A stretch of 64,000 bases of DNA. Origin: Minisyncoccia bacterium. GTDB taxonomy: Bacteria > Patescibacteriota > Minisyncoccia > Phycocordibacterales > UBA9973. Shown here piece by piece: positions 1 to 23,212 of this stretch. The notes beneath the pieces were generated by a model, which was given only the letters and a program-made list of their open reading frames with translations, was not told the origin of the DNA and ran no database searches. Positions within the stretch are counted from its first letter, which is position 1; every line of letters begins with the position of its first letter. Both the position numbers and the translations under genes were made by a program. Location of the stretch: assembly GCA_049287305.1 (NCBI GenBank), contig JBAQFO010000014.1, positions 64,453 through 128,452 on the forward strand, given 5' to 3'.

Positions 1-1697
1 TTAACTTTTATGAAAAAATAAAAGTTCCTCCGCCCACATTTTGCCATTTATGCAGAGCCGAAAGGCGTTTTAGTTATAGAAATGAAAGAAAACTTTTCAA
101 GGTAAAAGACGCTTTCACGGGAAAAGAAATTCTATCTACTTACCCAACTGAAAGTGGCAGAAATATAATCACCAGAGACACATGGCTTGGCGACAGCTGG
201 GACGCGATGGATTACGGCATGGATGTGGATTTTTCCAGACCATTTTGGGAGCAAATACATGAGCTTGAAATGAAAGTCCCGATGTATAACTATAATGTTA
301 TAAAAATGATAAACAGTCCTTATGCTTTTAATGCCACAGGGTTGAAGAACAGCTATCTCGTAGTAAATTCTAGTTACTCCGAAGATTGCATGTTCGGCAA
401 CGCAATTGACTATTGTAAGGATTGTGTAGACAACTCTCATATCCAGGAAACCGAAAGATGTTATGAATGTTTCTGGCTGCGCAAATGCTATCAATGTTAT
501 TTTACGATAATGTCATGGGACTCAAGGAATTTATGGTTTTCTAGAGATTGCGGAGGTTGCAGTGATTGTTTCGGGTGTGTTAATTTGCGCCAATCATCCT
601 ATTGTATTTTCAACAAGCAATATACGAAAGAAGAATATGAGAAAGAGATAGAAAAGATGAAACTTGATACCTCTTCAGGCATTAAAGAGGCGCGAGAAAA
701 AGTCAGAGCTTTTTGGCAAACTCAAATAACAAGGCATCAGCAAGGTGTAAGAAATTTAAACTCAACCGGTTCTTATGTAACGGACAGCAAGAATGTAAAA
801 GATAGCTATCTAGTGAGAGAAAGTGAAAATTTAAAATATTGCCAGTACTTACAAGTTCCCAGCAGTAAGGACAATTACGATGTTGCTAACTGGGGCCAGA
901 ATATTGAATTATGCTACGAAACGATAGAGTGCGGAGAAAATTCTTATAATAATAAATTTTCTAGAAATTGCTGGCCATCATGCCGAAACATAGAGTACGG
1001 CGTCCACCTTTTTAGCTCCTCTGATTGTTTTGGCTGCGTAGGTCTGAAGAAGAAACAATATTGTATCTTGAATAAGCAGTATACCAAAGAAGAATATGAG
1101 GAGTTGGTGTCAAAAATAAGAAAGCACATGGAAGATATGCCTTATATTGATTCGCGGGGAATTATTTATAAATATGGGGAATTTTTTCCTATTGAGCTTT
1201 CGCCTTTTGGGTATAACAATACTCTCTCTATTCAGCATTTTGACCTTACAAAAGAAGAAGCAGAAGGTAAGGGATATACTTGGATCGAGTCAGAGAAAGG
1301 GGAATATGTTATTACCATGAAAGCCGACGAGTTGCCTGATGCGATAGAAGATATTGCCGATTCTATTGTAAAAGAAGTTATAGAATGTGAAAAATGCCAG
1401 CGAGCTTATCGTATACTAGAAAACGAATTTATTTTCTTGAAAAAAGAAAATTTACCTCTTCCACGATTATGCAGCGAATGCAGACATGAGCGTCGTATAA
1501 GTGATAGACTAAAGTTGTTTTTATACGAGCGAACCTGCATGTGTGCCGGGGTTACGGACGAAACTGGCAAATATCAAAATACTGTCCAGCATGCGCACAG
1601 AAGCTCCGCCTGTTCGGAAAAATTTAAAACCGGATATTCGGGTGAGCGCCCCGAAATAGTTTATTGCGAAAAGTGCTATCAGCAGGAAGTGTATTAA
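1..1697 (+). CDS. Cysteine-rich multi-zinc-ribbon paralog family member 1 (5' end truncated by window edge; about 20 aa missing)
   Basis: Continuous reading frame from position 3 (NFYEKIKVPPPTFCHLCR...). Shares internal repeats C..C..CFGCV.L+.K.YCI.NKQYTKEEYE (x2), MPYIDSRG..YKYGEFFP..SPFGYN, and the C-terminal C..C..YxI..NE..F.K...LPLPR.C..CRH ... EFETSYAP.RPEIVYCEKCYQQEVY with ORFs at 2759, 4498, 34967, 37574 and 63426(-). Confidence 0.8.
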   Translation, partial: NFYEKIKVPPPTFCHLCRAERRFSYRNERKLFKVKDAFTGKEILSTYPTESGRNIITRDTWLGDSWDAMDYGMDVDFSRPFWEQIHELEMKVPMYNYNVIKMINSPYAFNATGLKNSYLVVNSSYSEDCMFGNAIDYCKDCVDNSHIQETERCYECFWLRKCYQCYFTIMSWDSRNLWFSRDCGGCSDCFGCVNLRQSSYCIFNKQYTKEEYEKEIEKMKLDTSSGIKEAREKVRAFWQTQITRHQQGVRNLNSTGSYVTDSKNVKDSYLVRESENLKYCQYLQVPSSKDNYDVANWGQNIELCYETIECGENSYNNKFSRNCWPSCRNIEYGVHLFSSSDCFGCVGLKKKQYCILNKQYTKEEYEELVSKIRKHMEDMPYIDSRGIIYKYGEFFPIELSPFGYNNTLSIQHFDLTKEEAEGKGYTWIESEKGEYVITMKADELPDAIEDIADSIVKEVIECEKCQRAYRILENEFIFLKKENLPLPRLCSECRHERRISDRLKLFLYERTCMCAGVTDETGKYQNTVQHAHRSSACSEKFKTGYSGERPEIVYCEKCYQQEVY

Positions 1698-2386
1698 ATT
1701 CTATTAACCGCGCGGTAAGTAGCCACTATGGCGGCGGTTTCTCCTCGTAGGGTTAGGGAACCAAGAGAGGCGACTCGGTAGCCTGCTTTTTTTGCAAGTG
1801 CTACTTCTGCTTCAGTAAATCCGCCTTCTGGTCCTATAAAGATATTTACAGTTTTCACATTTTTATTTTGCGAATATGATTCGCCACCGAGGTGGAAGAT
1901 AGTCTTTTCTTCTGCTTCCGGATTATTCTTTAGCGCGTCTTCAAATTTTAAAATAGGGGACAGGGTAGGGACTACGCTTCTTCCTGATTGTTCGCTCGCT
2001 TCCCGGATAATTTTTATGAGGCGTTCGGTATTTAATCCGGTTTTGACAGTCCGCTCGGTAATTATTGGAGTAATGTTTGAAACTCCCGTTTCAACCGCTT
2101 TTTGAACAGCCAGTTCAAAATTTTCTTTCTTTAATATCGCTAAATATAAACTTACTTTTGTTTCGGTTTCTTCCAAGTGTATAATTTTCTCCATACCTAC
2201 AGAAATACTCTTCGGAGACATGTCTAAAATTGTAGCTTCTGCTACACCGCCTTTACCATCTCCCAAAATTATTCTATTTCCAATTTCCAGCCTCAAAACA
2301 CCCTTTATTTGCTTGATATTTTCTGGGTTGGTAATTTTCAGCTCTTTTTTTGACAAATTAAAATCTCCAATAAATCTATGTAATCT
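1694..2386 (-). CDS. rsmE: 16S rRNA (uracil1498-N3)-methyltransferase RsmE (SPOUT family)
   Basis: N-terminal MRLHRF..., C-terminal IFIGPEGGFTEAE...SLG..TLR.ETAA motif typical of RsmE. The ORF track extends to 2404; the internal MRLHRF start at 2386 is more likely. Confidence 0.7.
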   Translation of the reverse strand, partial: RLHRFIGDFNLSKKELKITNPENIKQIKGVLRLEIGNRIILGDGKGGVAEATILDMSPKSISVGMEKIIHLEETETKVSLYLAILKKENFELAVQKAVETGVSNITPIITERTVKTGLNTERLIKIIREASEQSGRSVVPTLSPILKFEDALKNNPEAEEKTIFHLGGESYSQNKNVKTVNIFIGPEGGFTEAEVALAKKAGYRVASLGSLTLRGETAAIVATYRAVNRI

Positions 2387-2447
2387 CATGTTTACATAAT
2401 ACACCCGAAATGTTAAAATAAAAAGTAGTAAATAGTTTCAGATATCA

Positions 2448-2465
2448 TTCTAAAGTTCGTTAGAA
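2448..2465. promoter_or_regulatory. Palindromic operator-like site 1, TTCTAAagttcgTTAGAA (6-6-6 inverted repeat), 17 nt upstream of the ArsR-type gene start
   Basis: Perfect 6-bp inverted arms seen directly. A near-identical copy occurs at 2726-2743. Both are followed by (t/c)at(t)AGAATA. Confidence 0.4.
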
Positions 2466-2481
2466 TTATAGAATATATAAT

Positions 2482-2754
2482 ATGAAAAAATCAAACCGAG
2501 CATTAGAAAGAATTATAAAAGGTTTTGCCAGCTATAGGAGATTACAAATACTAGAACTTTTGAAAAAAGAGCCGGAATTATCCTTGCAGGAAATTTCTGA
2601 AAGGGTTAATTCTGATTTCAAAAATATCTCCTCTCATATTGGTAAAATGGCAATTGCTGGTTTGTTGATGAAGCGCAGTGATGCACATTCAGTAAGACAC
2701 AAATTAACTAAAAGAGGAATTAATGTTCTTAAGTTCGTTAGAACATTAGAATAA
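2482..2754 (+). CDS. ArsR/SmtB-family winged-helix transcriptional regulator
   Basis: 90 aa. SYRRLQILELLKKEPELSLQEISERVNSDFKNISSHIGKMAIAGLL matches the ArsR HTH pattern (L..RL.IL..L...ELS..EI......S.HL..L..AGL). No canonical metal-sensing ELCVCD motif seen. Confidence 0.7.
   Translation: MKKSNRALERIIKGFASYRRLQILELLKKEPELSLQEISERVNSDFKNISSHIGKMAIAGLLMKRSDAHSVRHKLTKRGINVLKFVRTLE
2726..2743. promoter_or_regulatory. Palindromic operator-like site 2, TTCTTAagttcgTTAGAA, overlapping the 3' end of the ArsR-type gene and 16 nt upstream of the Cys-rich paralog 2 start
   Basis: Second copy of the 18-bp motif (17/18 identical to the site at 2448-2465) with the same downstream AGAATA. Confidence 0.4.
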
Positions 2755-2758
2755 AAAA

Positions 2759-4495
2759 ATGGAACAAGAAACAAAAAACTGTCAAAATTGCAAAAAAGAT
2801 TTCATTATAGAGTTCGAGGACTTTAACTTTTACGAGAAAATAAAGGTGCCTCCGCCTACTTTTTGTCCGGAATGCAGAATGACCTCAAGAATGATCTGGA
2901 GAAATGAGCGCTCGCTATACAAACGAGACTGCGATTTCTGTAAAAAGAGTATTATTTCAGTATATTCAAAGGACGCAAATTTTCCTGTTTATTGTTATGA
3001 ATGCTGGTGGGGTGATAATTGGGATCCCAGAGAATATGGACAAGATTACAATTTTTCTAAAGTTTTTTTTGAGCAATTACTTGAGTTATCTACGAAAGTA
3101 CCGCGTCAAGCTCTCGGCGTTATTAGTAATTTTAATAGTCCATATTTAAATTATGCTTGGCATAGCAAGAACAGCTATATGTGTTTTGATCTCGGTTACG
3201 GGGAAAATGTTCTATATTCAAATGCTTGTCATTACCTGAAAGATTCTTCAGATAATAGCTACTGTAAAAAACTTGACCTCTGTTATGAGTGTGCAGATAG
3301 TCAGGAATCAAGTATGTCAGATACCCTTGAAAAATGTAAAAATTGCCTAGATTCTTCTTTTCTTTTTAATTGCAAAAGCTGCTCCTCTTGTATTCTTTGT
3401 TCTAATTTAACTAGCAAGCAGTATTGTATTTTAAATAAACAGTATACAAAAGAAGAATATGAAAAGATAAAAAAAGATTATATCGATGGCAGTTTTGCAA
3501 AGAGGGAAAGCACTGCTAAGTTATTTAAACAATTAAAAATAGAATCAATTCAGAGAGAAAACAATAATGTTCAGGTAAAAAACTGTACAGGAGATAATAT
3601 TTGGAGTAGCGATAATTGTAAAAAATCTTTTAATGTTTTCAAATCTCAAAATTGTAAATTCGTGAATGACATTGATAGCAGTTTAAAGGATAGTATGGAT
3701 TTAAGTAATGCAGCAGAAGGAGAACTTATGTATTACAGCACTTCAGCTAGCGGTAGAAGCCTATTTTTTAATGTTTTTATCTCGTCCTCCTTCAATATAT
3801 TTTATTCAATCTTATGTCCTAACAATAACAACAATTTGTTTGCATGCATTGGCTTGCGAAACAAAAGTTATTGCATATTAAACAAACAGTACACAAAAGA
3901 AGAATACGAAGAGCTTATACCTAAAATTAAAAAACATATGGACGAAATGCCATATATTGATTCTAGGGGTCTTGTATATAAATATGGGGAATTTTTCCCA
4001 AGAGAATTCTCACCATTTTCTTACAACGAAACAGTAGCTCAAGAAAACTTTCCGCTCAACAGAGACGAAGCCATAAATCAAGGTTATAAATGGAAAGATA
4101 AGGATGCCCGAAATTATGCCGTAGAAATCATGAATGAAAATATCCCTGATAATATTAAAGATGCAACTGATGACGTTATAGGTAAAGTTATAGAATGTAA
4201 AAACAAAGGAGAAAACAGCGAACAATGCACAGAAGCGTTCAAAATTATCGAGCAGGAGTTTTATTTTTATAAGAGAATGAATTTACCTTTACCTCGTTTT
4301 TGCCCCAATTGTAGACACCACGAAAGGTTAGGAAAAAGAAACCCCATGAAACTCTGGAAAAGAGGATGCATGTGCGAAAAAGAAAATCATATGCACGGCT
4401 CAATTAAATGTGAAATCGAATTTGAGACAAGTTATGCTCCCGACCGACCAGAGATAATTTACTGTGAAAAGTGCTATCAGCAGGAAGTTTACTAA
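2759..4495 (+). CDS. Cysteine-rich multi-zinc-ribbon paralog family member 2
   Basis: 578 aa. N-terminal C.NC..F.IE.EDFNFYEKIKVPPPTFCPECR...RNE..LY.R.C.FCKK zinc-ribbon module; two internal C..C..C..C..L..K.YCILNKQYTKEEYE repeats; C-terminal module ending EFETSYAPDRPEIIYCEKCYQQEVY. Starts 5 nt after the ArsR stop. Confidence 0.85.
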   Translation: MEQETKNCQNCKKDFIIEFEDFNFYEKIKVPPPTFCPECRMTSRMIWRNERSLYKRDCDFCKKSIISVYSKDANFPVYCYECWWGDNWDPREYGQDYNFSKVFFEQLLELSTKVPRQALGVISNFNSPYLNYAWHSKNSYMCFDLGYGENVLYSNACHYLKDSSDNSYCKKLDLCYECADSQESSMSDTLEKCKNCLDSSFLFNCKSCSSCILCSNLTSKQYCILNKQYTKEEYEKIKKDYIDGSFAKRESTAKLFKQLKIESIQRENNNVQVKNCTGDNIWSSDNCKKSFNVFKSQNCKFVNDIDSSLKDSMDLSNAAEGELMYYSTSASGRSLFFNVFISSSFNIFYSILCPNNNNNLFACIGLRNKSYCILNKQYTKEEYEELIPKIKKHMDEMPYIDSRGLVYKYGEFFPREFSPFSYNETVAQENFPLNRDEAINQGYKWKDKDARNYAVEIMNENIPDNIKDATDDVIGKVIECKNKGENSEQCTEAFKIIEQEFYFYKRMNLPLPRFCPNCRHHERLGKRNPMKLWKRGCMCEKENHMHGSIKCEIEFETSYAPDRPEIIYCEKCYQQEVY

Positions 4496-4497
4496 AT

Positions 4498-6216
4498 ATG
4501 AAAACCGAAACAAAAAATTGTCAAAATTGTAAAAAAGACTTCACTATAGAGCCGGAAGATTTTAACTTTTATGAAAAAATAAAAGTTCCCCCACCAACAT
4601 TTTGTCCGGAATGCAGACTTATGCGTCGTATGACCTGGCGCAATGAACGTACTTTACATAGAAATAAATGTGCTAAAACTGGCAAAAGTTTAATAAGTTG
4701 TTTTTCTGCAGAATCTCCATTTACCGTTTACGAGAGAGATATTTGGTGGGGAGATGAATGGGATCCGACAGGATATGGAATAGAATATGATTTTGAAAAA
4801 CCATTTTTTGCTCAAATTCGCGAATTATTAGAAAAAGTGCCTCACCCAAATCTGTTCATTGGAAAGTGTGTAAATACTTCTTACGGTAATCATATTGGTG
4901 AATTTAGAAATTCATATCTTATATCTGCATCTTGGGGAGGAGATAATATAGCATATGGGTCTCGTTGCAATTACTGCAAAGATTCGATGGATATGTATAT
5001 AACTACTAACTCTGAATTTTGTTATGGTGATATTTCTTCAAATAAATGTTACGAAACTTTCTTCTCTCAGAACGCAGATTCTTGTACGAGCTCATATTTT
5101 CTTTATGATTGTAAAAACTGTATAAATTGCTTCGGTTGCACATCACTTCGCGATAAGTCTAATTGTATGTGGAATGTTCAATATACGAGAGAAGAATATA
5201 ATGAAAAATTAAAAGAATTAGATATTGGTGATTTTGAAAAGTTTAAAAAGATAAAAGAGAAGTTCGAAAAATTTAAATTAAATGCTGTCAGAAGATTTGC
5301 AAATATCACGAACTCAACTAATGTTTCTGGGGATGATATTTCTCATGCAGATAATTCTCAATCTTGCTTTGGTGTCTTTGAAGAAATAAAAAATAATAAA
5401 TTCTTAATGAATGCTTTTCGTATCAAGGATAGTTATGATGGCTATGGTGTTGGCATTGGAGAATTGATATATGAAGCTTTAGATTCTGGTCTTAATGCAT
5501 ATCGGCAACTTTTTGCATTTATAAATTGGGAATGTCTCAATGCTGAATATTCTTTCAACTGTCATGGATGTAACAATATTTTCGGTTGTGTCGGTCTTCG
5601 CAAGAAGAATTACTGCATTTTTAATAAACAATATTCTAAAGAAGAATTTTTAAAACTTCGTGAACAAATTATTGAGCACATGGATAAGATGCCATACATT
5701 GATAAAAAGAAGCGAGAGTATAAATATGGAGAATTTTTCCCGACAGAAATTTCTCCGTTTGGATACAATGAGACTATTGCACAGGATTATTTTCCTCTTT
5801 CTAAAGAAGAAATTTCTAATAATGGTTATAATTGGATAGAACGAGAAAAACCTGAATACCAAGCAACTTCTTTATCTAAAGATTTACCTAATCACATAAA
5901 ATATGCTACAGAAGATATATTAAACCTAAGTATAGAATGTGAATTTTGTAAAAGGCCTTATAAAATAATCCAAAATGAATATATATTTTTAAAAAGGTTT
6001 GGTCTGCCATTGCCGAGAGCTTGTTTCGAATGTAGGCACCAAGAACGATTTAAGAAAGTTAATCCTCCAGAGCTTTGGCACAGATCTTGTATGTGCAATA
6101 AAGAAGGTCATATACACGAATTAACTAAATGCGAAGTTGAATTCGAAACCTCGTATGCTCCCGACAGACCCGAGATTGTCTACTGCGAAAAGTGTTATCA
6201 GCAGGAAGTTTACTGA
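4498..6216 (+). CDS. Cysteine-rich multi-zinc-ribbon paralog family member 3
   Basis: Same family. N-terminal region is about 80% nucleotide-identical to paralog 2, then diverges; C-terminal ...EFETSYAPDRPEIVYCEKCYQQEVY. ATG at 4498 (3 nt after the paralog 2 stop) preferred over the ORF-track start 4471, which overlaps the upstream gene. Confidence 0.85.
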   Translation: MKTETKNCQNCKKDFTIEPEDFNFYEKIKVPPPTFCPECRLMRRMTWRNERTLHRNKCAKTGKSLISCFSAESPFTVYERDIWWGDEWDPTGYGIEYDFEKPFFAQIRELLEKVPHPNLFIGKCVNTSYGNHIGEFRNSYLISASWGGDNIAYGSRCNYCKDSMDMYITTNSEFCYGDISSNKCYETFFSQNADSCTSSYFLYDCKNCINCFGCTSLRDKSNCMWNVQYTREEYNEKLKELDIGDFEKFKKIKEKFEKFKLNAVRRFANITNSTNVSGDDISHADNSQSCFGVFEEIKNNKFLMNAFRIKDSYDGYGVGIGELIYEALDSGLNAYRQLFAFINWECLNAEYSFNCHGCNNIFGCVGLRKKNYCIFNKQYSKEEFLKLREQIIEHMDKMPYIDKKKREYKYGEFFPTEISPFGYNETIAQDYFPLSKEEISNNGYNWIEREKPEYQATSLSKDLPNHIKYATEDILNLSIECEFCKRPYKIIQNEYIFLKRFGLPLPRACFECRHQERFKKVNPPELWHRSCMCNKEGHIHELTKCEVEFETSYAPDRPEIVYCEKCYQQEVY

Positions 6217-6240
6217 TTTTTATGGTAAAATAACCTATAT

Positions 6241-7737
6241 ATGCCCAAGCCGAATCGAGTGCAAATAATAAAATATGGGCCACCACCGCCAGAGCTGCCT
6301 GTTTTCGGCAAAGTTAAGCCCGAAGAATGCTCTTTCATTGGACGCACGAATTATGTGGCTTCTCTTGAAGAAAAAAAGTTCGTTTTCGGAATCAAAAGAG
6401 TAGACCGCCGCAGGCACCTATATATCATTGGAAAGTCGGGTGTAGGTAAGACCAAACTTCTCGAGCTCATGATTCGACAAGACGTGTCCTACGGGCATGG
6501 ACTATGTTTAATTGACCCGCACGGAGACGTGATAGACGCAATGCTGGATTATATACCGAAGGAGCGAATTGAGGATGTTTGTATTATCGACCCATCCGAT
6601 ATTGATTTTCCGGCGTCCTTCAATCCTTTGGCGAACGTTGACCCCATGTTTAAATTCCAGTTAACGCAAGGGTTGATAGAAGTTTTTCAAAAACAGTTCG
6701 GAGCCAACTGGACGCCCCGCCTGGAGCACGTTTTTCGTTTTACTTGTCTCGCGCTCTTGGACTACCCGCATGCGACCATGCGTGGGATGATATCCATGCT
6801 AACCGACCGAAACTACAGACAGAAAGTTGTGGAATACATTACTGATGACATGGTTAAAAGATTCTTTGCCATAGAATTTGCCGACTGGTCCGAGAAATTT
6901 GATACAGATGCGATTATTCCGTTGGTGAACAAACTCGGGCAATTCCTATCAGACCCGCTTCTTAGAAACATTTTCGGACAGAAACAAAACAAAATTGATA
7001 TCAGTAAATTAATGAATGAGAGAAAAATTATTTTCATTAATCTTTCCAAGGGACGCCTTGGAGAAGAGAATTCCTCATTTCTTGGTTCCATATTTTTAAC
7101 AAAGATAAAACAGGCGGGTATGGAGCGGGCGGCTATCCCGGAAGCTGAACGTAAAGATTTTTATCTTTACGTGGATGAGTTCCAAAACGTCGTGACTCAG
7201 ACTTTTGAGAACATCCTCTCTGAGGCTCGCAAATACGGACTTAATCTTACAATGGCGCATCAATATGTAGGACAGATAATACCTAAAGTTCACCAGGCGG
7301 TGCTAGGTAACTGCGGAAGCATCATTACTTTTCGAATCGGAGGTGAAGATGCAGTGAAAATGAAGCCGGAATTTGCGCCATTGTTTGACGTTAAAGATAT
7401 GATAAATCTAGCCGTGGGAGAGATTTATATAAAGATGACTATTGATGGCGAATCTTACGATCCATTTTCAGCAGAAACTCTGATGGTTCTTCCGGCTACG
7501 CATCCATCTTACAGACAGGAAATAATTGATGCTTCGCATAGAAAATACTCCATACCGAAAGGAGACGCGGCCAAGCTTATTGCCGAAGAAGAAGCAACCA
7601 TAATCAGAAGCTCCGAAGAGAAAGCCATAATAGAAGGAAGGAATAAAACAAAACCCCAAGGACCAGAAGGAGACACAAATTCTTCGGAAGAAAATTCCAA
7701 ATCTCGGACTTCACAAGAGGCGGAGCCTATGATATAA
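6241..7737 (+). CDS. Soluble TraD/VirD4/TrwB-like (type IV coupling protein-like) P-loop ATPase
   Basis: Walker A HLYIIGKSGVGKTKLL, CLIDPHGD, Walker B YLYVDEFQNV, no N-terminal TM segments. Acidic/Ser-rich C-terminal tail. Confidence 0.7.
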   Translation: MPKPNRVQIIKYGPPPPELPVFGKVKPEECSFIGRTNYVASLEEKKFVFGIKRVDRRRHLYIIGKSGVGKTKLLELMIRQDVSYGHGLCLIDPHGDVIDAMLDYIPKERIEDVCIIDPSDIDFPASFNPLANVDPMFKFQLTQGLIEVFQKQFGANWTPRLEHVFRFTCLALLDYPHATMRGMISMLTDRNYRQKVVEYITDDMVKRFFAIEFADWSEKFDTDAIIPLVNKLGQFLSDPLLRNIFGQKQNKIDISKLMNERKIIFINLSKGRLGEENSSFLGSIFLTKIKQAGMERAAIPEAERKDFYLYVDEFQNVVTQTFENILSEARKYGLNLTMAHQYVGQIIPKVHQAVLGNCGSIITFRIGGEDAVKMKPEFAPLFDVKDMINLAVGEIYIKMTIDGESYDPFSAETLMVLPATHPSYRQEIIDASHRKYSIPKGDAAKLIAEEEATIIRSSEEKAIIEGRNKTKPQGPEGDTNSSEENSKSRTSQEAEPMI

Positions 7738-19142: not shown

Positions 19143-19327
19143 CTTCGTGTTTTCCACAGGCGGTTGCACTTGCTTACATTTGTGCTATAATACAAAGGTA
19201 ATGAAAAATTTACAGCCAAAAGCCAATATTTCCGCCAATAGCTATTTCTTCTTTTTTAGCTTTAGCCCTAACCTTAGAGGCCGGATATTTGCGCTGTAAA
19301 AAAGAATCCAACTAACTTACAACTCAA

Positions 19328-19358
19328 ACACCCGCTCTCTAAGGCGGGTGTTTTCGTT
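19328..19358 (+). terminator. Rho-independent terminator (ACACCCGC-tctctaag-GCGGGTGT then T-run)
   Basis: 8-bp GC-rich stem plus TTTTCGTTT downstream of the histidine phosphatase gene. Confidence 0.55.
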
Positions 19359-19425
19359 TAACGAAAACAAAACGTGTTCTTTGTCAAAAAAATAACAACT
19401 ATCTTAAGAAGAAGGAGTAAACTTA

Positions 19426-19695
19426 TGGCAAGACGTCTTCCGAAGGTCATTGCACAAGCGATTCGTTCTGAACTCGGCATTGCAAAGAATGCTTTGCCGG
19501 AGAACATTCCCTGGGAAAAATCTGAGGGAGGCTGGTGCTGGACTTTTCGATTTCCAGATCCACACTTCCACAACAGGGCTGAATCCGAAGTCACGATCCG
19601 GGTATTCAACGGGTCCTCTGAGGTTCATATCAGGGACAGCAACAAGCGCTCGTGGTCGGGGTGGCTTCCGAGTCATCTTTGCCCTACCTCGTAGG
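19426..19695 (+). other. GC-rich (about 52%) small transcription unit: AAGGAG RBS plus an 89-codon ORF (MARRLPKVIAQAIRSELG...); could instead be a structured ncRNA
   Basis: AAGGAG sits 7 nt before the ATG. The region is markedly more GC-rich than its flanks and open in several frames. It is bounded by terminators at 19328-19358 and 19764-19800. Confidence 0.3.
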
Positions 19696-19763
19696 GGAGC
19701 GGTTTCTGAACCGTAAAACCAGACGCCGATCTTTGTCGGGCGAAAATAGACAGAGGAAATAAG

Positions 19764-19800
19764 GGGGCAGTCTTCGGACATAAGACCCCTTTTTCTTTTT
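19764..19800 (+). terminator. Terminator-like hairpin GGGGGCAGTCTT...AAGACCCC followed by TTTTTCTTTTT
   Basis: Seen directly, at the end of the GC-rich unit. Confidence 0.45.
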
Positions 19801-19839
19801 GCATTTGATTTTACAAATAAATATGTTACTATATAAATA

Positions 19840-20020
19840 TAGCCTTTGAACCAGATGACACTGGGGAGGCAAGGGAAGAAAACCTTTGGTTATTAGACCC
19901 CTTCGTTTAACCACGTTACGGTTATAATTAAGTAAAAAGTAGGGTGGCACCGCGAGCAAAATCGCCCCTGCAAATTTATCAATAAAGATAAGTTTGGAGA
20001 GGCGATTTTGTTTTTTGTGC
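19840..20020 (+). promoter_or_regulatory. T-box riboswitch leader, probably Asp-specific, with a reduced Stem I
   Basis: Exact T-box core AGGGTGGCACCGCG at 19941-19954. TGGC implies N=C, pairing with a G73 discriminator as in tRNA-Asp. Candidate specifier hairpin CCAG-atGACa-CTGG at 19851-19864 (GAC = Asp codon). Terminator 19956-20017 (GCAAAATCGCC...GGCGATTTTG plus TTTTTTGT) whose 5' arm abuts the T-box core. Upstream TTGATT/TATATA promoter-like elements at about 19805/19830. Downstream operon contains aspS. Confidence 0.7.
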
Positions 20021-20046
20021 TATTATTAAACTAATTAGAAATAAAA

Positions 20047-20430
20047 ATGAACCAAGAAATTAAATTAGAATACATACATTTATGCGACTTCGCATCCCCA
20101 GCCCCTAGCGGAAAAGTTAATCTTTTGGGAATTTTCGATTCCTTTTTAGCCACAAAAGCTCCTGATTTTTATGTGGTAGTTAAAATTATTAACGCGGAGC
20201 CTCAAAAAGAGTACAAGATTTCGTTTGAAGTTGTTTCAGTAAATGATAATAAAAGAATTTATGTAGATCAGAACCCTATTCAAATTCCTTCAACTAACAC
20301 CAACTCAACTTTTAATATTCTACAATTAATTAAAAATTTAGATTTTCTAAGCTTCGGAACCTACAAAATTACAGCTTTAGTGGACGGCAACCCTATAGGA
20401 TATAAACAACTAGAAGTTAAAAAATCCTAA
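20047..20430 (+). CDS. Hypothetical small protein (127 aa), first gene of the T-box-controlled aspS operon
   Basis: ORF begins 27 nt after the terminator T-run; aspS follows 9 nt after its stop. Confidence 0.5.
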   Translation: MNQEIKLEYIHLCDFASPAPSGKVNLLGIFDSFLATKAPDFYVVVKIINAEPQKEYKISFEVVSVNDNKRIYVDQNPIQIPSTNTNSTFNILQLIKNLDFLSFGTYKITALVDGNPIGYKQLEVKKS

Positions 20431-20439
20431 ATTAAATAT

Positions 20440-21951
20440 ATGGAAAATTCACGCGACGAAAGCTTAAAAACATTTTCTATAGGCTACTTAACAGAGTCCT
20501 CCTCCTCTGTTTACAGTTCTTCTTATCCTAAAATAAAAGTTCTTGGAAGAATTCTGATTAATGATTTACGAAACCATATTGATACGGAAGTAACAATCAA
20601 AGGGTGGATAAACATACGACGCGACCAAGGTAAAATGGTTTTTTTCGATTTTCGCGATAGTTCTGGATTTATTCAAGGCGTTGTTTTGCCTAATAGTGGT
20701 GCTTTGGAAGTTGCAAAAATAGCTAGACCTGAATGGGTGGTAGAAATTACTGGAAAAGTTAGCAACCGAATAGGAAAGACGATAAACACCAACATTCAAA
20801 ATGGGGATATTGAACTACAAGTTTCCTACATCAAAGTGTTAAATGAAGCTAACACGCCATATTTTGAAATCAACACAGAAGGCTACGAGATAGGGGAAGA
20901 GCATAGGCTGAAATACAGGTATCTGGACTTACGCAGGTCGCGGATGCAGAAAAATATCCGCCACAGGCATAAAGTCGTTAAATTTATCCGGGATTACCTG
21001 GACAAAGAAAATTTTATTGAAGTTGAAACTCCGATATTAACCAAGTCTACTCCCGAGGGCGCGCGTGACTACATAGTGCCTTCCAGGCTTTGGCAGGGGA
21101 CGTTTTACGCCCTTCCGCAATCACCGCAGCAGTACAAACAGCTTTTGATGGCTTCCGGCGCCGAAAAATATTTCCAAATCGCACGCTGTATGCGGGACGA
21201 AGACACTCGGGGGGACAGGCAGCCGGAGTTTACTCAGCTGGATATGGAAATGAGTTTCGTGGATAGAGAAGACGTAATGTCTCTGAACGAAGCGCTTTTG
21301 ATAAACATAGTGCAGACTCTTTACCCCGAGAAAAAAATCCAGGAAATTCCTTTTCCGAGGATTACCTACAAGGAGGCGATAGAAAAATACGGGACCGACA
21401 GGCCGGACTTCAGGAAAGACAAGGATGACAAAAACCTTCTGGCTTTTTGCTGGGTTATCGATTTTCCTTTTTTCGAACGCACGGACAAGTCGGATAACGC
21501 GCAGACGGAAGGCGAGTGGACCTTCACCCACAATCCTTTTTCCCGCCCGCAAAACGAACATATGGAAATGCTGATGGGCAAAAAAGACATCGGGGACATT
21601 TTAACCACTCAATACGACGTGGTTCTAAACGGCTCGGAGATAGGGGGAGGCAGTATCAGAAACCACGAACCGGAGGCTCTCAGAAAAGTTTTTGAGATTA
21701 TGGGCTATTCATCCGAACGCATTGAAAAAAACTTCAGCCACATGCTGGAAGCCTTGGGTTCTGGCTGCCCGCCACACGGAGGCATCGCCTGGGGGTTTGA
21801 CCGGCTGATGATGCTTCTCGAGAACGAGCTAAACATACGGGAAGTGATAGCCTTTCCAAAAACCGGCGAAGGCAAAGACCTGATGATGAATTCACCGTCT
21901 GAAGTTTCCGAAAAACAGCTCAAGGAGCTTGGCATCAAACTTGGTAAGTAA
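20440..21951 (+). CDS. aspS: Aspartyl-tRNA synthetase (compact form, no GAD insertion; possibly non-discriminating)
   Basis: N-terminal OB-fold anticodon-binding domain. Class II motif 2 region FYALPQSPQQYKQLLMASGAEKYFQIARCMRDEDTRGDRQPEFTQLDMEMSF, and motif 3 GSEIGGGSIR. Confidence 0.85.
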   Translation: MENSRDESLKTFSIGYLTESSSSVYSSSYPKIKVLGRILINDLRNHIDTEVTIKGWINIRRDQGKMVFFDFRDSSGFIQGVVLPNSGALEVAKIARPEWVVEITGKVSNRIGKTINTNIQNGDIELQVSYIKVLNEANTPYFEINTEGYEIGEEHRLKYRYLDLRRSRMQKNIRHRHKVVKFIRDYLDKENFIEVETPILTKSTPEGARDYIVPSRLWQGTFYALPQSPQQYKQLLMASGAEKYFQIARCMRDEDTRGDRQPEFTQLDMEMSFVDREDVMSLNEALLINIVQTLYPEKKIQEIPFPRITYKEAIEKYGTDRPDFRKDKDDKNLLAFCWVIDFPFFERTDKSDNAQTEGEWTFTHNPFSRPQNEHMEMLMGKKDIGDILTTQYDVVLNGSEIGGGSIRNHEPEALRKVFEIMGYSSERIEKNFSHMLEALGSGCPPHGGIAWGFDRLMMLLENELNIREVIAFPKTGEGKDLMMNSPSEVSEKQLKELGIKLGK

Positions 21952-21962
21952 AGTATTACGTA

Positions 21963-22292
21963 ATGCATTACATATTATCAGGTAAGGTGATAAGAGGGGA
22001 TGGATACGGCAGAAAGATAGGATTCCCTACGGCTAATTTGGAAGTTATAGACCAAGAACTTCCACCCGAGGGAGTTTACTCGGGAGAGGCAATGTTGGAA
22101 AATAAAAAATATAAGGCGGGCATAGTGATAGGGCCGGGTGATAAGGTTGAGGCGCATCTGATAGGGTATAATGGAGATGCTTATGGTAAAAATGTTACTT
22201 TGGAAATAAATAAATTCCTGAGAAATTATATAAAATTTGAAACGGAAGAGGCGCTTATTTTACAAATTAAAAAAGATATAAGTCTATGCTAA
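21963..22292 (+). CDS. Riboflavin kinase (stand-alone RFK domain)
   Basis: GKVIRGDGYGRKIGFPTANL...GVYSGE...HLIGYNGDAYGK matches the RibF C-terminal kinase domain. Confidence 0.7.
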   Translation: MHYILSGKVIRGDGYGRKIGFPTANLEVIDQELPPEGVYSGEAMLENKKYKAGIVIGPGDKVEAHLIGYNGDAYGKNVTLEINKFLRNYIKFETEEALILQIKKDISLC

Positions 22293-23212
22293 AAATTTAT
22301 CAAGGTCCTGTGTTTATTATCATCGCGGCGTTACTTTGGGCTTTTGACGGACTCATTCGCCAGCACTTGTATTCGCTGCCGCCAATCACAATAATTTTCT
22401 TCGAACACCTAATAGGACTCCTTATTTTGTCTCCGTTCGTATTTAAATATATTTTTAAGACAAAATTATCTGGGCGCGATTGGGGGCTTGTCATTTTGAT
22501 AGCAATTCTAAGCGGTCTTTTCGGCACGCTCTGGTTTACTACCGCGCTAGGAAAGGTGCATTTCATTACTATCTCTGTGGTGTTCCTCCTCCAGAAGTTA
22601 CAGCCGATTTTTGCCATAACCACTGCGAGAATTTTCTTGAAAGAAAAACTGGACAGCAGATATATAAAATGGGCGGTTCTGGCAATCGTTTCAGCTTACT
22701 TCGTTACGTTCCCAAATGGAGTCGTTAACCTGGAAACCGGGGAAGGCACCGCCATAGCCGCGCTTTACGCCCTCGGAGCGGCTTTCGCCTGGGGGTCTTC
22801 TACCACTTTTTCCAAAATGCTTTTAGGCAAAATTGATTTCAAGGTGAGCACCTTTTACAGATTTCTGGTAACCGTGGTTGTGGCATTACCTGTTTTGTAT
22901 TTATTTGGGAGAGGAGGGGAAGCGGGTTCTCCAAGTATTTTAGTTCCATCCATCTCACAGTTTGGATTCTTGGCGATTATTGCTTTGTCTACCGGCATGG
23001 TGGCGCTTCTTATATATTACAAAGGCCTCGCGAAAACTCCGGTGCATATTTCAACCATTCTGGAACTAACTTTTCCTTTCATCGCGATATTTTTAGATAT
23101 GATAGTAAACGGCACGGCGCTTTCCTTGTCACAGTGGGTTGCCGCCGTAATCCTGGTATTTAGCATCTATAAAATTTCTCGTTTACGGGAAAGCTTCTCT
23201 GTTGTAATCTAG
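22286..23212 (+). CDS. EamA/DMT-superfamily transporter
   Basis: 308 aa with about 10 TM helices and duplicated EamA-like halves. Confidence 0.6.
   Translation: MLKIYQGPVFIIIAALLWAFDGLIRQHLYSLPPITIIFFEHLIGLLILSPFVFKYIFKTKLSGRDWGLVILIAILSGLFGTLWFTTALGKVHFITISVVFLLQKLQPIFAITTARIFLKEKLDSRYIKWAVLAIVSAYFVTFPNGVVNLETGEGTAIAALYALGAAFAWGSSTTFSKMLLGKIDFKVSTFYRFLVTVVVALPVLYLFGRGGEAGSPSILVPSISQFGFLAIIALSTGMVALLIYYKGLAKTPVHISTILELTFPFIAIFLDMIVNGTALSLSQWVAAVILVFSIYKISRLRESFSVVI

Follow-up and report, generated by a model that had tools for sequence, protein, structure and literature searches.

A probable terminator-coupled T-box leader with an ultrashort Stem I upstream of aspS in a patescibacterial genome

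The aspS locus and its leader

A 64-kb stretch of a contig from a "Minisyncoccia bacterium" metagenome-assembled genome (MAG) was analyzed (the window; all coordinates are positions within it). On its forward strand, a leader RNA at 19841-20018 precedes a gene for a DUF6941 protein and aspS, the gene for aspartyl-tRNA synthetase (AspRS, AspS). The features of this locus are collected in Table 1. The leader is very probably a genuine, conserved T-box of the tRNA-Asp type that is patescibacterial, aspS-specific and coupled to a terminator, has an ultrashort Stem I, and works in the manner described below. The host was placed in the Patescibacteria (Candidatus Nomurabacteria/Paceibacterota) by using AspS homologues together with the source record of the MAG, in agreement with a preliminary description of this DNA that had put the host outside the Firmicutes. 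The identical leader, open reading frame (ORF) and aspS were recovered from an independent Logan assembly (L001; related loci are cited by such L numbers).

The T-box core AGGGTGGCACCGCG was located by exact match at 19941-19954, as had been reported in the preliminary description, and the conserved T-box sequence AGGGUGGNACCGCG was matched exactly as the 5' side of the antiterminator. With 0.08 copies expected in 64 kb, the core GGGTGGNACCRCG occurred once, and the kink-turn (K-turn) and hairpin pattern TGA-N7-GACA-N5-GAG occurred once in the window against 0.01 expected, so that a chance origin of core and hairpin was excluded. Using the Rfam model RF00230 in E-value mode (401-nt search), an end-to-end alignment with all T-box landmarks was obtained at 19837-19972 (51.2 bits, E = 1.8e-10). 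A family-specific covariance model gave 141.8 bits for the window leader, itself a training sequence, and 136-139 bits for independent relatives. No second T-box core or model match was found in the window, though cysS and gltX are present, and a search of 1.33 Mb of related loci gave none apart from those at aspS.

Table 1. Coordinates of features at the aspS locus
Feature	Position	Strand	Basis or annotation
Possible -35 element TTGATT	19805-19810	+	sequence
Putative extended -10 promoter	TG 19824-19825, 1 base, TACTAT 19827-19832	+	sequence recurrence
Reduced Stem I	19842-19870	+	RF00230 alignment, unguided RNAalifold, covariation
Stem I base helix	GCC 19842-19844 / GGC 19868-19870	+	RF00230, RNAalifold
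K-turn-like element	UUUGAA 19845-19850 opposite GGA 19865-19867	+	predicted
Stem I upper helix, 4 bp	CCAG 19851-19854 / CUGG 19861-19864	+	RF00230, RNAalifold
Terminal 6-nt specifier loop AUGACA	19855-19860; GAC 19857-19859, then A19860	+	sequence
Stem II	19871-19903	+	covariation, RNAalifold
Stem II outer helix	AAGGG 19871-19875 / CCCUU 19899-19903	+	5/5 pairs with compensatory changes
Stem II S-turn strands	AAGAAAA 19876-19882; AUUAGAC 19892-19898	+	consensus
Stem II apical hairpin AACC-UUU-GGUU	within 19871-19903	+	sequence
Stem IIA/B pseudoknot	19904-19924	+	IIA CGU 19904-19906 / ACG 19913-19915; IIB UAACC 19908-19912 / GGUUA 19920-19924
Purine-rich 16-nt linker UAUAAUUAAGUAAAAAGU in place of Stem III	19925-19940	+	RF00230 Stem III deleted
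T-box sequence and antiterminator	19941-19969	+	cmscan, RNAalifold
Antiterminator helices	A1 AGGG/CCCU; A2 GCGA/UCGC	+	cmscan, RNAalifold
7-nt antiterminator bulge UGGCACC	19945-19951; UGGC 19945-19948 facing tRNA 3' GCCA	+	sequence
Intrinsic terminator	19954-20018	+	hairpin of about 25 bp, interrupted by small internal loops and capped by the apical loop AAUAAA; U-tract follows
Terminator arms	GCAAAATCGCC 19956-19966; GGCGATTTTG 20001-20010; then TTTTTTGT	+	sequence
Terminator U-tract UUUUUUGU	20011-20018	+	sequence
DUF6941 protein, 127 aa, first gene 3' of leader	20047-20430	+	Pfam PF22091, E 1.2e-13
aspS, bacterial-type AspRS without GAD insertion	20440-21951	+	Pfam tRNA-synt_2 and anticodon OB domain
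Stand-alone riboflavin-kinase gene	21963-22292, 11 nt after aspS stop		PF01687
308-aa ORF overlapping the riboflavin-kinase gene	22286-23212		looks like a membrane protein

Decoding module

In the RF00230 alignment, 72 Stem I positions were replaced by 2 nt and the Stem III positions were deleted. The missing Stem I positions are those of the specifier internal loop, the AG bulge and the distal loop (double T-loop platform). The hairpin that remains, CCAG-ATGACA-CTGG presenting GAC, was found where the preliminary description had placed it, and all seven Stem I pairs showed compensatory changes among 36 sequences. Toward its base, UGA and GAG lie on opposite strands, and G8, A9, A27 and G28 were invariant in 16 sequences, a pattern from which a kink is predicted.

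Farther 3', the S-turn consensus, AGAAA opposite AGUAGAAC or AUUAGAAC, was kept in 21 leaders. Nested IIA and IIB helices, with a IIB sequence that differed from leader to leader (UAACC/GGUUA in the window; elsewhere UACUC/GAGUG, CUGCG/CGCAG and ACCGC/GCGGU, for example), were recovered by a per-sequence search in most of the 19 leaders with a Stem II and were clear in 13; the search took other helices in L085, L100, L115 and three Stem III-bearing leaders. Double changes were seen at four of the five IIB pairs even in an unguided alignment. The linker that takes the place of Stem III has the consensus AAUUAAG-NN-AAAAGUA, which is kept family-wide. Stem II and the IIA/B pseudoknot are intact in this element; Stem I alone is truncated, and Stem III is absent. 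Stems I, II and III had all been described as reduced in the preliminary description, which stood for Stem I and, in the form of outright absence, for Stem III; it was corrected for Stem II, which is complete and covarying along with IIA/B.

Antiterminator and terminator

The terminator and the antiterminator are mutually exclusive, since the 5' arm of the one shares nucleotides with the 3' half of the other. The terminator folded at -32.8 to -34.7 kcal/mol in RNAfold (z = -6.0 against shuffles). In the window, 19954-20013 with the U-tract evaluated as a terminator of -32.8 kcal/mol, against -7.6 kcal/mol for the antiterminator alone, and the medians over 31 leaders were -28.6 and -6.2 kcal/mol, respectively. 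A terminator starting just after the core and competing with the antiterminator had been proposed earlier; both conformers were predicted here, with the terminator by far the stronger. A U-tract lies 3' of the hairpin in every family member, and this genome has somewhat more terminator-like sites than its shuffles do (32, compared with 20.6 ± 4.4).

Two further observations were made on the terminator. Its upper 5' arm (window 19967-19979, CUGCAAAUUUAUC) contains (A/G)AUUUAUCA, which was kept in five of seven leaders not selected for it, with equivalents in L002, L005, L007, L046 and L051. This conservation exceeds the needs of base pairing, and a pause site or binding site is possible. In L002 (L002:9985-10015), L092, L098, L113, L102 and L086, UCUCCAA just 3' of the U-tract complements UUGGAGA of the 3' terminator arm and could form a further alternative hairpin; this pairing is absent from the window.

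Homologous leaders and covariation

A protein-guided scan of species-representative genomes returned 80 aspS loci, nearly all from Patescibacteria, and a T-box core was present 5' of aspS in 8 of them. Metagenomes were scanned by using 3' elements only (GGGTGGCACCGCG, 10-40 nt, AATTTATCA), which yielded 39 loci, about 33 of them in the same leader family, and L121-L124 were added by individual protein look-ups. In total, approximately 40 homologous leaders were assembled from Patescibacteria genomes and metagenomes. All true members have a reduced Stem I with a base helix, UGA/GAG K-turn strands, a helix of 3-5 bp and an N-U-GAC-A loop.

Unguided RNAalifold on 16 window-like leaders recovered the base and upper helices of Stem I, the outer helix of Stem II, IIA and both antiterminator helices. 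Across 15 sequences, 94% of cells were paired and 12 pairs carried double changes, compared with 6.3 in shuffles (0 of 500 shuffles reached the observed value). Across 36 model-fitted sequences, 97.4% were paired and double changes were present in 17 of 22 pairs (9.2 when shuffled, 0 of 500). As a control, the 3' partner was slid by 1-3 columns, and 44-55% of cells were then paired. The pair counts rest on alignments A1 and A5 plus a direct parse; MAFFT misaligned the Stem I sequences with 7-nt loops (alignment A2).

The family spans several degrees of reduction. A Stem III hairpin was kept in four relatives (L046, L086, L091 and L108) and was missing from most window-like leaders (type A), while L082 and L111 have Stem II and no pseudoknot. 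Thirteen leaders (type B) have neither Stem II nor the IIA/B pseudoknot nor Stem III (among them L002:9863-10002, L095:1468-1596, L113:684-820, L092:773-922 and L103:3232-3372; also L051, L087, L098, L096 and L094). Stem I and the antiterminator are only about 24 nt apart in the smallest type B leaders, which gives a sensor of about 85 nt when counted from Stem I through the antiterminator. The RF00230 score of the type B leader in L002 was 31.3 bits. Specifier loops were tabulated for 34 leaders, window 19855-19860 included. The loop had 6 nt (yUGACA) in 20 of 21 Stem II-bearing leaders by parse, L046 being parsed as 5 and read as 6 by hand, and 7-9 nt, mostly the anticodon-loop-like CUGACAA, in all 13 leaders without Stem II. 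Types A and B were intermixed relative to AspS similarity and are therefore not simply two old clades.

Specificity

The register N-U-GAC-A was found in 30 of 34 leaders and AAC in place of GAC in the other 4, all with aspS-type genes; AAC was recorded in L012, L084, L094, L117 and L122. Wherever enough downstream sequence was available, aspS followed the leader (32 of 32). The GAC leader family precedes two non-orthologous genes, one for a bacterial-type AspRS without the GAD insertion and one for an archaeal-type non-discriminating aspartate--tRNA(Asn) ligase (NF003483 above cut-off), and this association of one leader family with two non-orthologous aspS genes is strong evidence of Asp specificity. 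It was noted from the genes downstream of the leaders in L085, L086, L088, L089 (for instance L089:6008-7351, minus strand), L102 and L110.

Genes for tRNA-Asp(GUC) adjoin the leaders in L046, L091 and L108, and these tRNAs have G73, with CCA not encoded. GAC pairs with the GUC anticodon, G73 complements the C of UGGC, and UGGC pairs with GCCA. The earlier assignment as an Asp T-box, from UGGC and a G73 discriminator, was thus borne out in three related loci, with the GAC of the window followed by A.

A close relative departs from this pattern at both sites. In L122 (L122:728-859), whose AspS is 79% identical to that of the window, the loop reads CAAACA (AAC in register) and the bulge UGGU; loop and bulge have both changed, a coordinated change of the kind expected if both sites contact the tRNA. 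From its sequence, the UGGU bulge would imply a tRNA with A73. UGGU is also present in L068 (L068:9690-9814), and L012 (L012:9821-9976) combines AAC with UGGC. No tRNA-Asn gene was found in any fetched locus.

Putative promoter and 5' boundary

The motif TGnTAyTAT recurs 8-10 nt 5' of Stem I across the homologous leaders (8 nt in the window), and the likely transcription start is at about 19839-19841. The extended -10 was not called by a generic promoter scan, which missed it because it matches just 8 of 12 positions. The preceding transcription unit contains an 89-aa ORF (19426-19694) with a strong AAGGAG ribosome-binding site, GC-richer than its surroundings and with no Pfam match. It ends in a clean terminator at 19764-19800 (GGGGCAGUCUU...AAGACCCC and a U-run). 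With this terminator upstream and a promoter abutting Stem I, there is no room for a canonical long Stem I. The GC-richer stretch 19150-19800 was considered as a structured RNA and rejected; it gave nothing credible in Rfam and holds the 89-aa ORF and its terminator.

Genes of the probable operon and neighborhood

The start of aspS lies 9 nt after the stop of the DUF6941 gene, a gap that suggests co-transcription of the two. AspS matched NCBIfam NF001750 with 625 bits (cut-off 443), in two stretches of the 590-position profile, and its homologues are named aspartate--tRNA ligase of Nomurabacteria/Paceibacterota. The AlphaFold2 model of the DUF6941 protein (predicted local distance difference test (pLDDT) score 95.8) is an all-beta, immunoglobulin-like sandwich. 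Structure searches returned fold-level matches only, to UNC119/PDE6D/RhoGDI and the Wzt carbohydrate-binding domain (TM-score about 0.5); there was no NCBIfam match, and a word-indexed protein search found three relatives only. The order leader-DUF6941-aspS was seen in four genomes, namely the window, L100 (41% identity), L121 (64%) and L123. In most relatives, including the one with the closest AspS (L002, 80% identity), the leader lies directly 5' of aspS. The preliminary description had an uncharacterised 127-aa protein co-regulated with aspS. The protein does lie between leader and aspS; it belongs to DUF6941 and is an accessory confined to one subclade (four genomes) rather than a standard member of the regulon.

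In the window, AspS has a 33-aa N-terminal extension. Low-complexity extensions of 33-70 aa were seen in the four DUF6941-aspS operons (window 20440-20538, and from L100:1347, L121:963 and L123:946) and were absent where AspS directly follows the leader. A rule that extended AspS is always paired with DUF6941 was considered and rejected; the extensions in L122 and L124 were gene-calling artefacts, and those in L123, L100, L121 and the window were genuine. The public gene calls L122:813-2336 and L124:1492-3033 extend aspS by 35-40 codons through leader and terminator, whereas the real starts lie near L122:925 and L124:1612. Such calls hide the leader from annotation.

Downstream, the T-box operon may extend past aspS into the riboflavin-kinase gene; aspS followed by a riboflavin kinase was also observed in L086 (L086:3496-3885). 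Elsewhere in the window, three large ORFs without a Pfam match (207-1697, 2759-4495 and 4471-6216) adjoin a TrwB/VirD4-like coupling ATPase (6241-7737), and 207-7737 could thus encode a pilus or a type IV secretion-like system.

Proposed mechanism and alternative explanations

In all likelihood, window 19841-20018 is the leader of the DUF6941-aspS operon and acts as a T-box that senses uncharged tRNA-Asp by transcription attenuation. Transcription would begin from the extended -10 promoter just 5' of Stem I. A decoding module would then fold, in which the K-turn and 4-bp Stem I present GAC, the S-turn of Stem II would buttress the codon-anticodon helix, and the IIA/B pseudoknot would complete the structure, with neither a distal Stem I elbow platform nor a Stem III. 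GAC would pair with the GUC anticodon. An uncharged tRNA would pair through its 3' GCCA with UGGC and stabilize the weak antiterminator (-7.6 kcal/mol) against the terminator (-33 kcal/mol), and RNA polymerase would read on into the DUF6941 gene, aspS and, probably, the riboflavin-kinase gene that begins 11 nt later. A charged tRNA would be unable to cap the bulge, so that the terminator would form and transcription would stop at the U-tract. Binding of tRNA, discrimination against charged tRNA and termination are what we infer from the elements, the alternative structures, the covariation, the link to aspS and the match to the tRNA-Asp of relatives.

The leader might instead control translation or RNA stability, its 3' hairpin serving as a sequestrator like that of the actinobacterial ultrashort ileS leaders. 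All previously described T-boxes with a specifier in the terminal loop are translational (bioRxiv 10.1101/2023.02.28.530422; PMC7583486), and the 3' arm of the hairpin contains GGAGAGG. This motif, however, is separated from the ATG at 20047 by at least 36 nt and, in relatives, from the aspS start by 25-30 nt, too distant for a Shine-Dalgarno sequence, and is accounted for by its complementarity to the conserved CGCCCCU. The start codon is outside the hairpin, at least 29 nt downstream, so the leader lacks the translational platform of the ultrashort class. Together with the U-tracts that directly follow the hairpin in all members, the terminator and antiterminator energies and the enrichment of terminator-like sites, these distances make transcription attenuation the best-supported mechanism, and translational control is improbable. 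Still less credible is that the leader is the relic of a decaying canonical T-box that senses no tRNA, with aspS expressed constitutively through leaky readthrough. The losses of distal Stem I and Stem III, the failure at the Rfam threshold and the presence of a T-box in only 8 of the 80 related species-level genomes would all suit such a relic. Yet about 40 leaders, drawn from separate genomes and samples, keep the truncated architecture and show compensatory changes in its pairs; the UGGC bulge, the S-turn, the GA pairs of the K-turn, and the specifier with its following purine either stay constant or vary in concert; and a terminator of -33 kcal/mol 5' of an essential gene would be harmful in a leader incapable of antitermination.

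A further proposal is a refinement of tRNA-Asp sensing by attenuation and not an alternative to it, namely that the leader answers both tRNA-Asp and tRNA-Asn, a non-discriminating AspRS making both Asp-tRNAs, with GAC reading GUU through a first-position G-U wobble. It draws on the AAC in the same loop register at the orthologous bacterial-type aspS of L012, L084, L094 and the close relative L122, and on those members that regulate the archaeal-type aspartate--tRNA(Asn) ligase. The dual response is nonetheless rather unlikely, given that the strict GAC of 30 of the 34 leaders suggests exact Watson-Crick reading and that no tRNA-Asn gene was recovered among the fetched loci.

Several points weigh against tRNA-Asp sensing by attenuation as set out above. 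The support for T-box function in the window is wholly computational. A gathering-threshold Rfam scan of the whole window gave no match, the 51.2 bits of the leader comparing with a gathering score of 93; the T-box match anticipated in the preliminary description was thus significant by E-value and fell short of the curated threshold, and for the same reason the leader is missed by standard annotation. No tRNA genes were found in the 64-kb window, so the match of UGGC to G73 rests on the tRNA-Asp of relatives. In the metagenomic set, GGGTGGCACCGCG and AATTTATCA are conserved by construction, since both were fixed by the search pattern; the upstream domains were unselected. Finally, according to reviews, transcriptional T-boxes generally depend on a platform that binds the tRNA elbow if tRNA is to be captured quickly during transcription (PMC7583486). 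A terminator-coupled T-box that has no platform runs counter to this expectation, and its kinetics call for an explanation.

Comparison with known T-boxes

The ultrashort Stem I T-boxes of actinobacterial ileS (Mycobacterium ileS, for example) were reportedly described by Sherwood, Grundy and Henkin in 2015. The resemblance to these that was suggested in the preliminary description holds. As in the ileS structures (6UFG/6UFH), a short Stem I carries the specifier in its terminal loop and lacks the double-T-loop elbow platform, Stem II with its S-turn and the IIA/B pseudoknot lie next to it, and a UGGN bulge reads the tRNA 3' end. The known class, in which a short helix presenting the specifier in its terminal loop stands for Stem I, is described as translational, and all its members are said to regulate ileS and respond to tRNA-Ile (bioRxiv 10.1101/2023.02.28.530422). 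They use a Shine-Dalgarno sequestrator and belong to Actinobacteria, whereas the window leader precedes aspS, has GAC and UGGC, ends in an intrinsic terminator with a U-tract, has no Stem III and is patescibacterial; some of its relatives are also without Stem II.

With the canonical transcriptional T-boxes (RF00230; Bacillus tyrS and glyQS), the window leader shares the 14-nt T-box, the competition between antiterminator and terminator, a basal K-turn in Stem I, a purine after the specifier, Stem II plus IIA/B (as in the tyrS type) and an aminoacyl-tRNA synthetase gene downstream. It differs in the lack of 72 Stem I model positions and of Stem III, and in a score below the gathering threshold. 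Leaders of the glyQS type have kept a long Stem I and have no Stem II; the window leader shows the reverse, and its type B relatives have lost both. By mechanism and most defining features the window leader is a T-box; it departs from the canonical family in three respects, having no Stem III, no distal Stem I platform and a score under the Rfam threshold.

In Clostridium acetobutylicum, a member of the Firmicutes, an Asn-specific T-box with a canonical long Stem I controls the tRNA-dependent Asn pathway. There, too, a T-box ties genes of Asp- or Asn-tRNA supply to the charging of a G73 tRNA; in the patescibacterial family, the AAC-specifier variants sit 5' of aspS and the window element reads GAC.

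No papers pairing T-boxes with the Candidate Phyla Radiation (CPR), Patescibacteria or Parcubacteria were found in full-text searches, and the truncated-Stem I model of TBDB was run only in Actinobacteria and on sequences that RF00230 had already found.

Implications

The leader extends T-box regulation to the CPR. It breaks two stated associations, that an ultrashort Stem I is ileS-specific and translational and that a transcriptional T-box needs an elbow platform, and it raises the kinetic question of how tRNA is captured fast enough during transcription when no platform is present. The relatives amount to a deletion series made by nature: some have Stem III, others lack it, others lack the pseudoknot, and others lack Stem II entirely. 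They are ready constructs for working out the smallest module that senses tRNA, and could serve synthetic biology as compact parts.

The chances are about even that Patescibacteria carry a hitherto unrecognised lineage of T-boxes in which tRNA is sensed co-transcriptionally without an elbow platform (type A) and also without Stem II, the pseudoknot and Stem III (type B). If so, capture in type B would consist of an anticodon-anticodon-type loop-loop contact, through the 7-nt loop C-U-GAC-A-A, together with NCCA pairing, and type B would be the minimal natural T-box. The lineage would then be a counter-example to the need for the distal Stem I platform, and for Stem II when Stem I is truncated.

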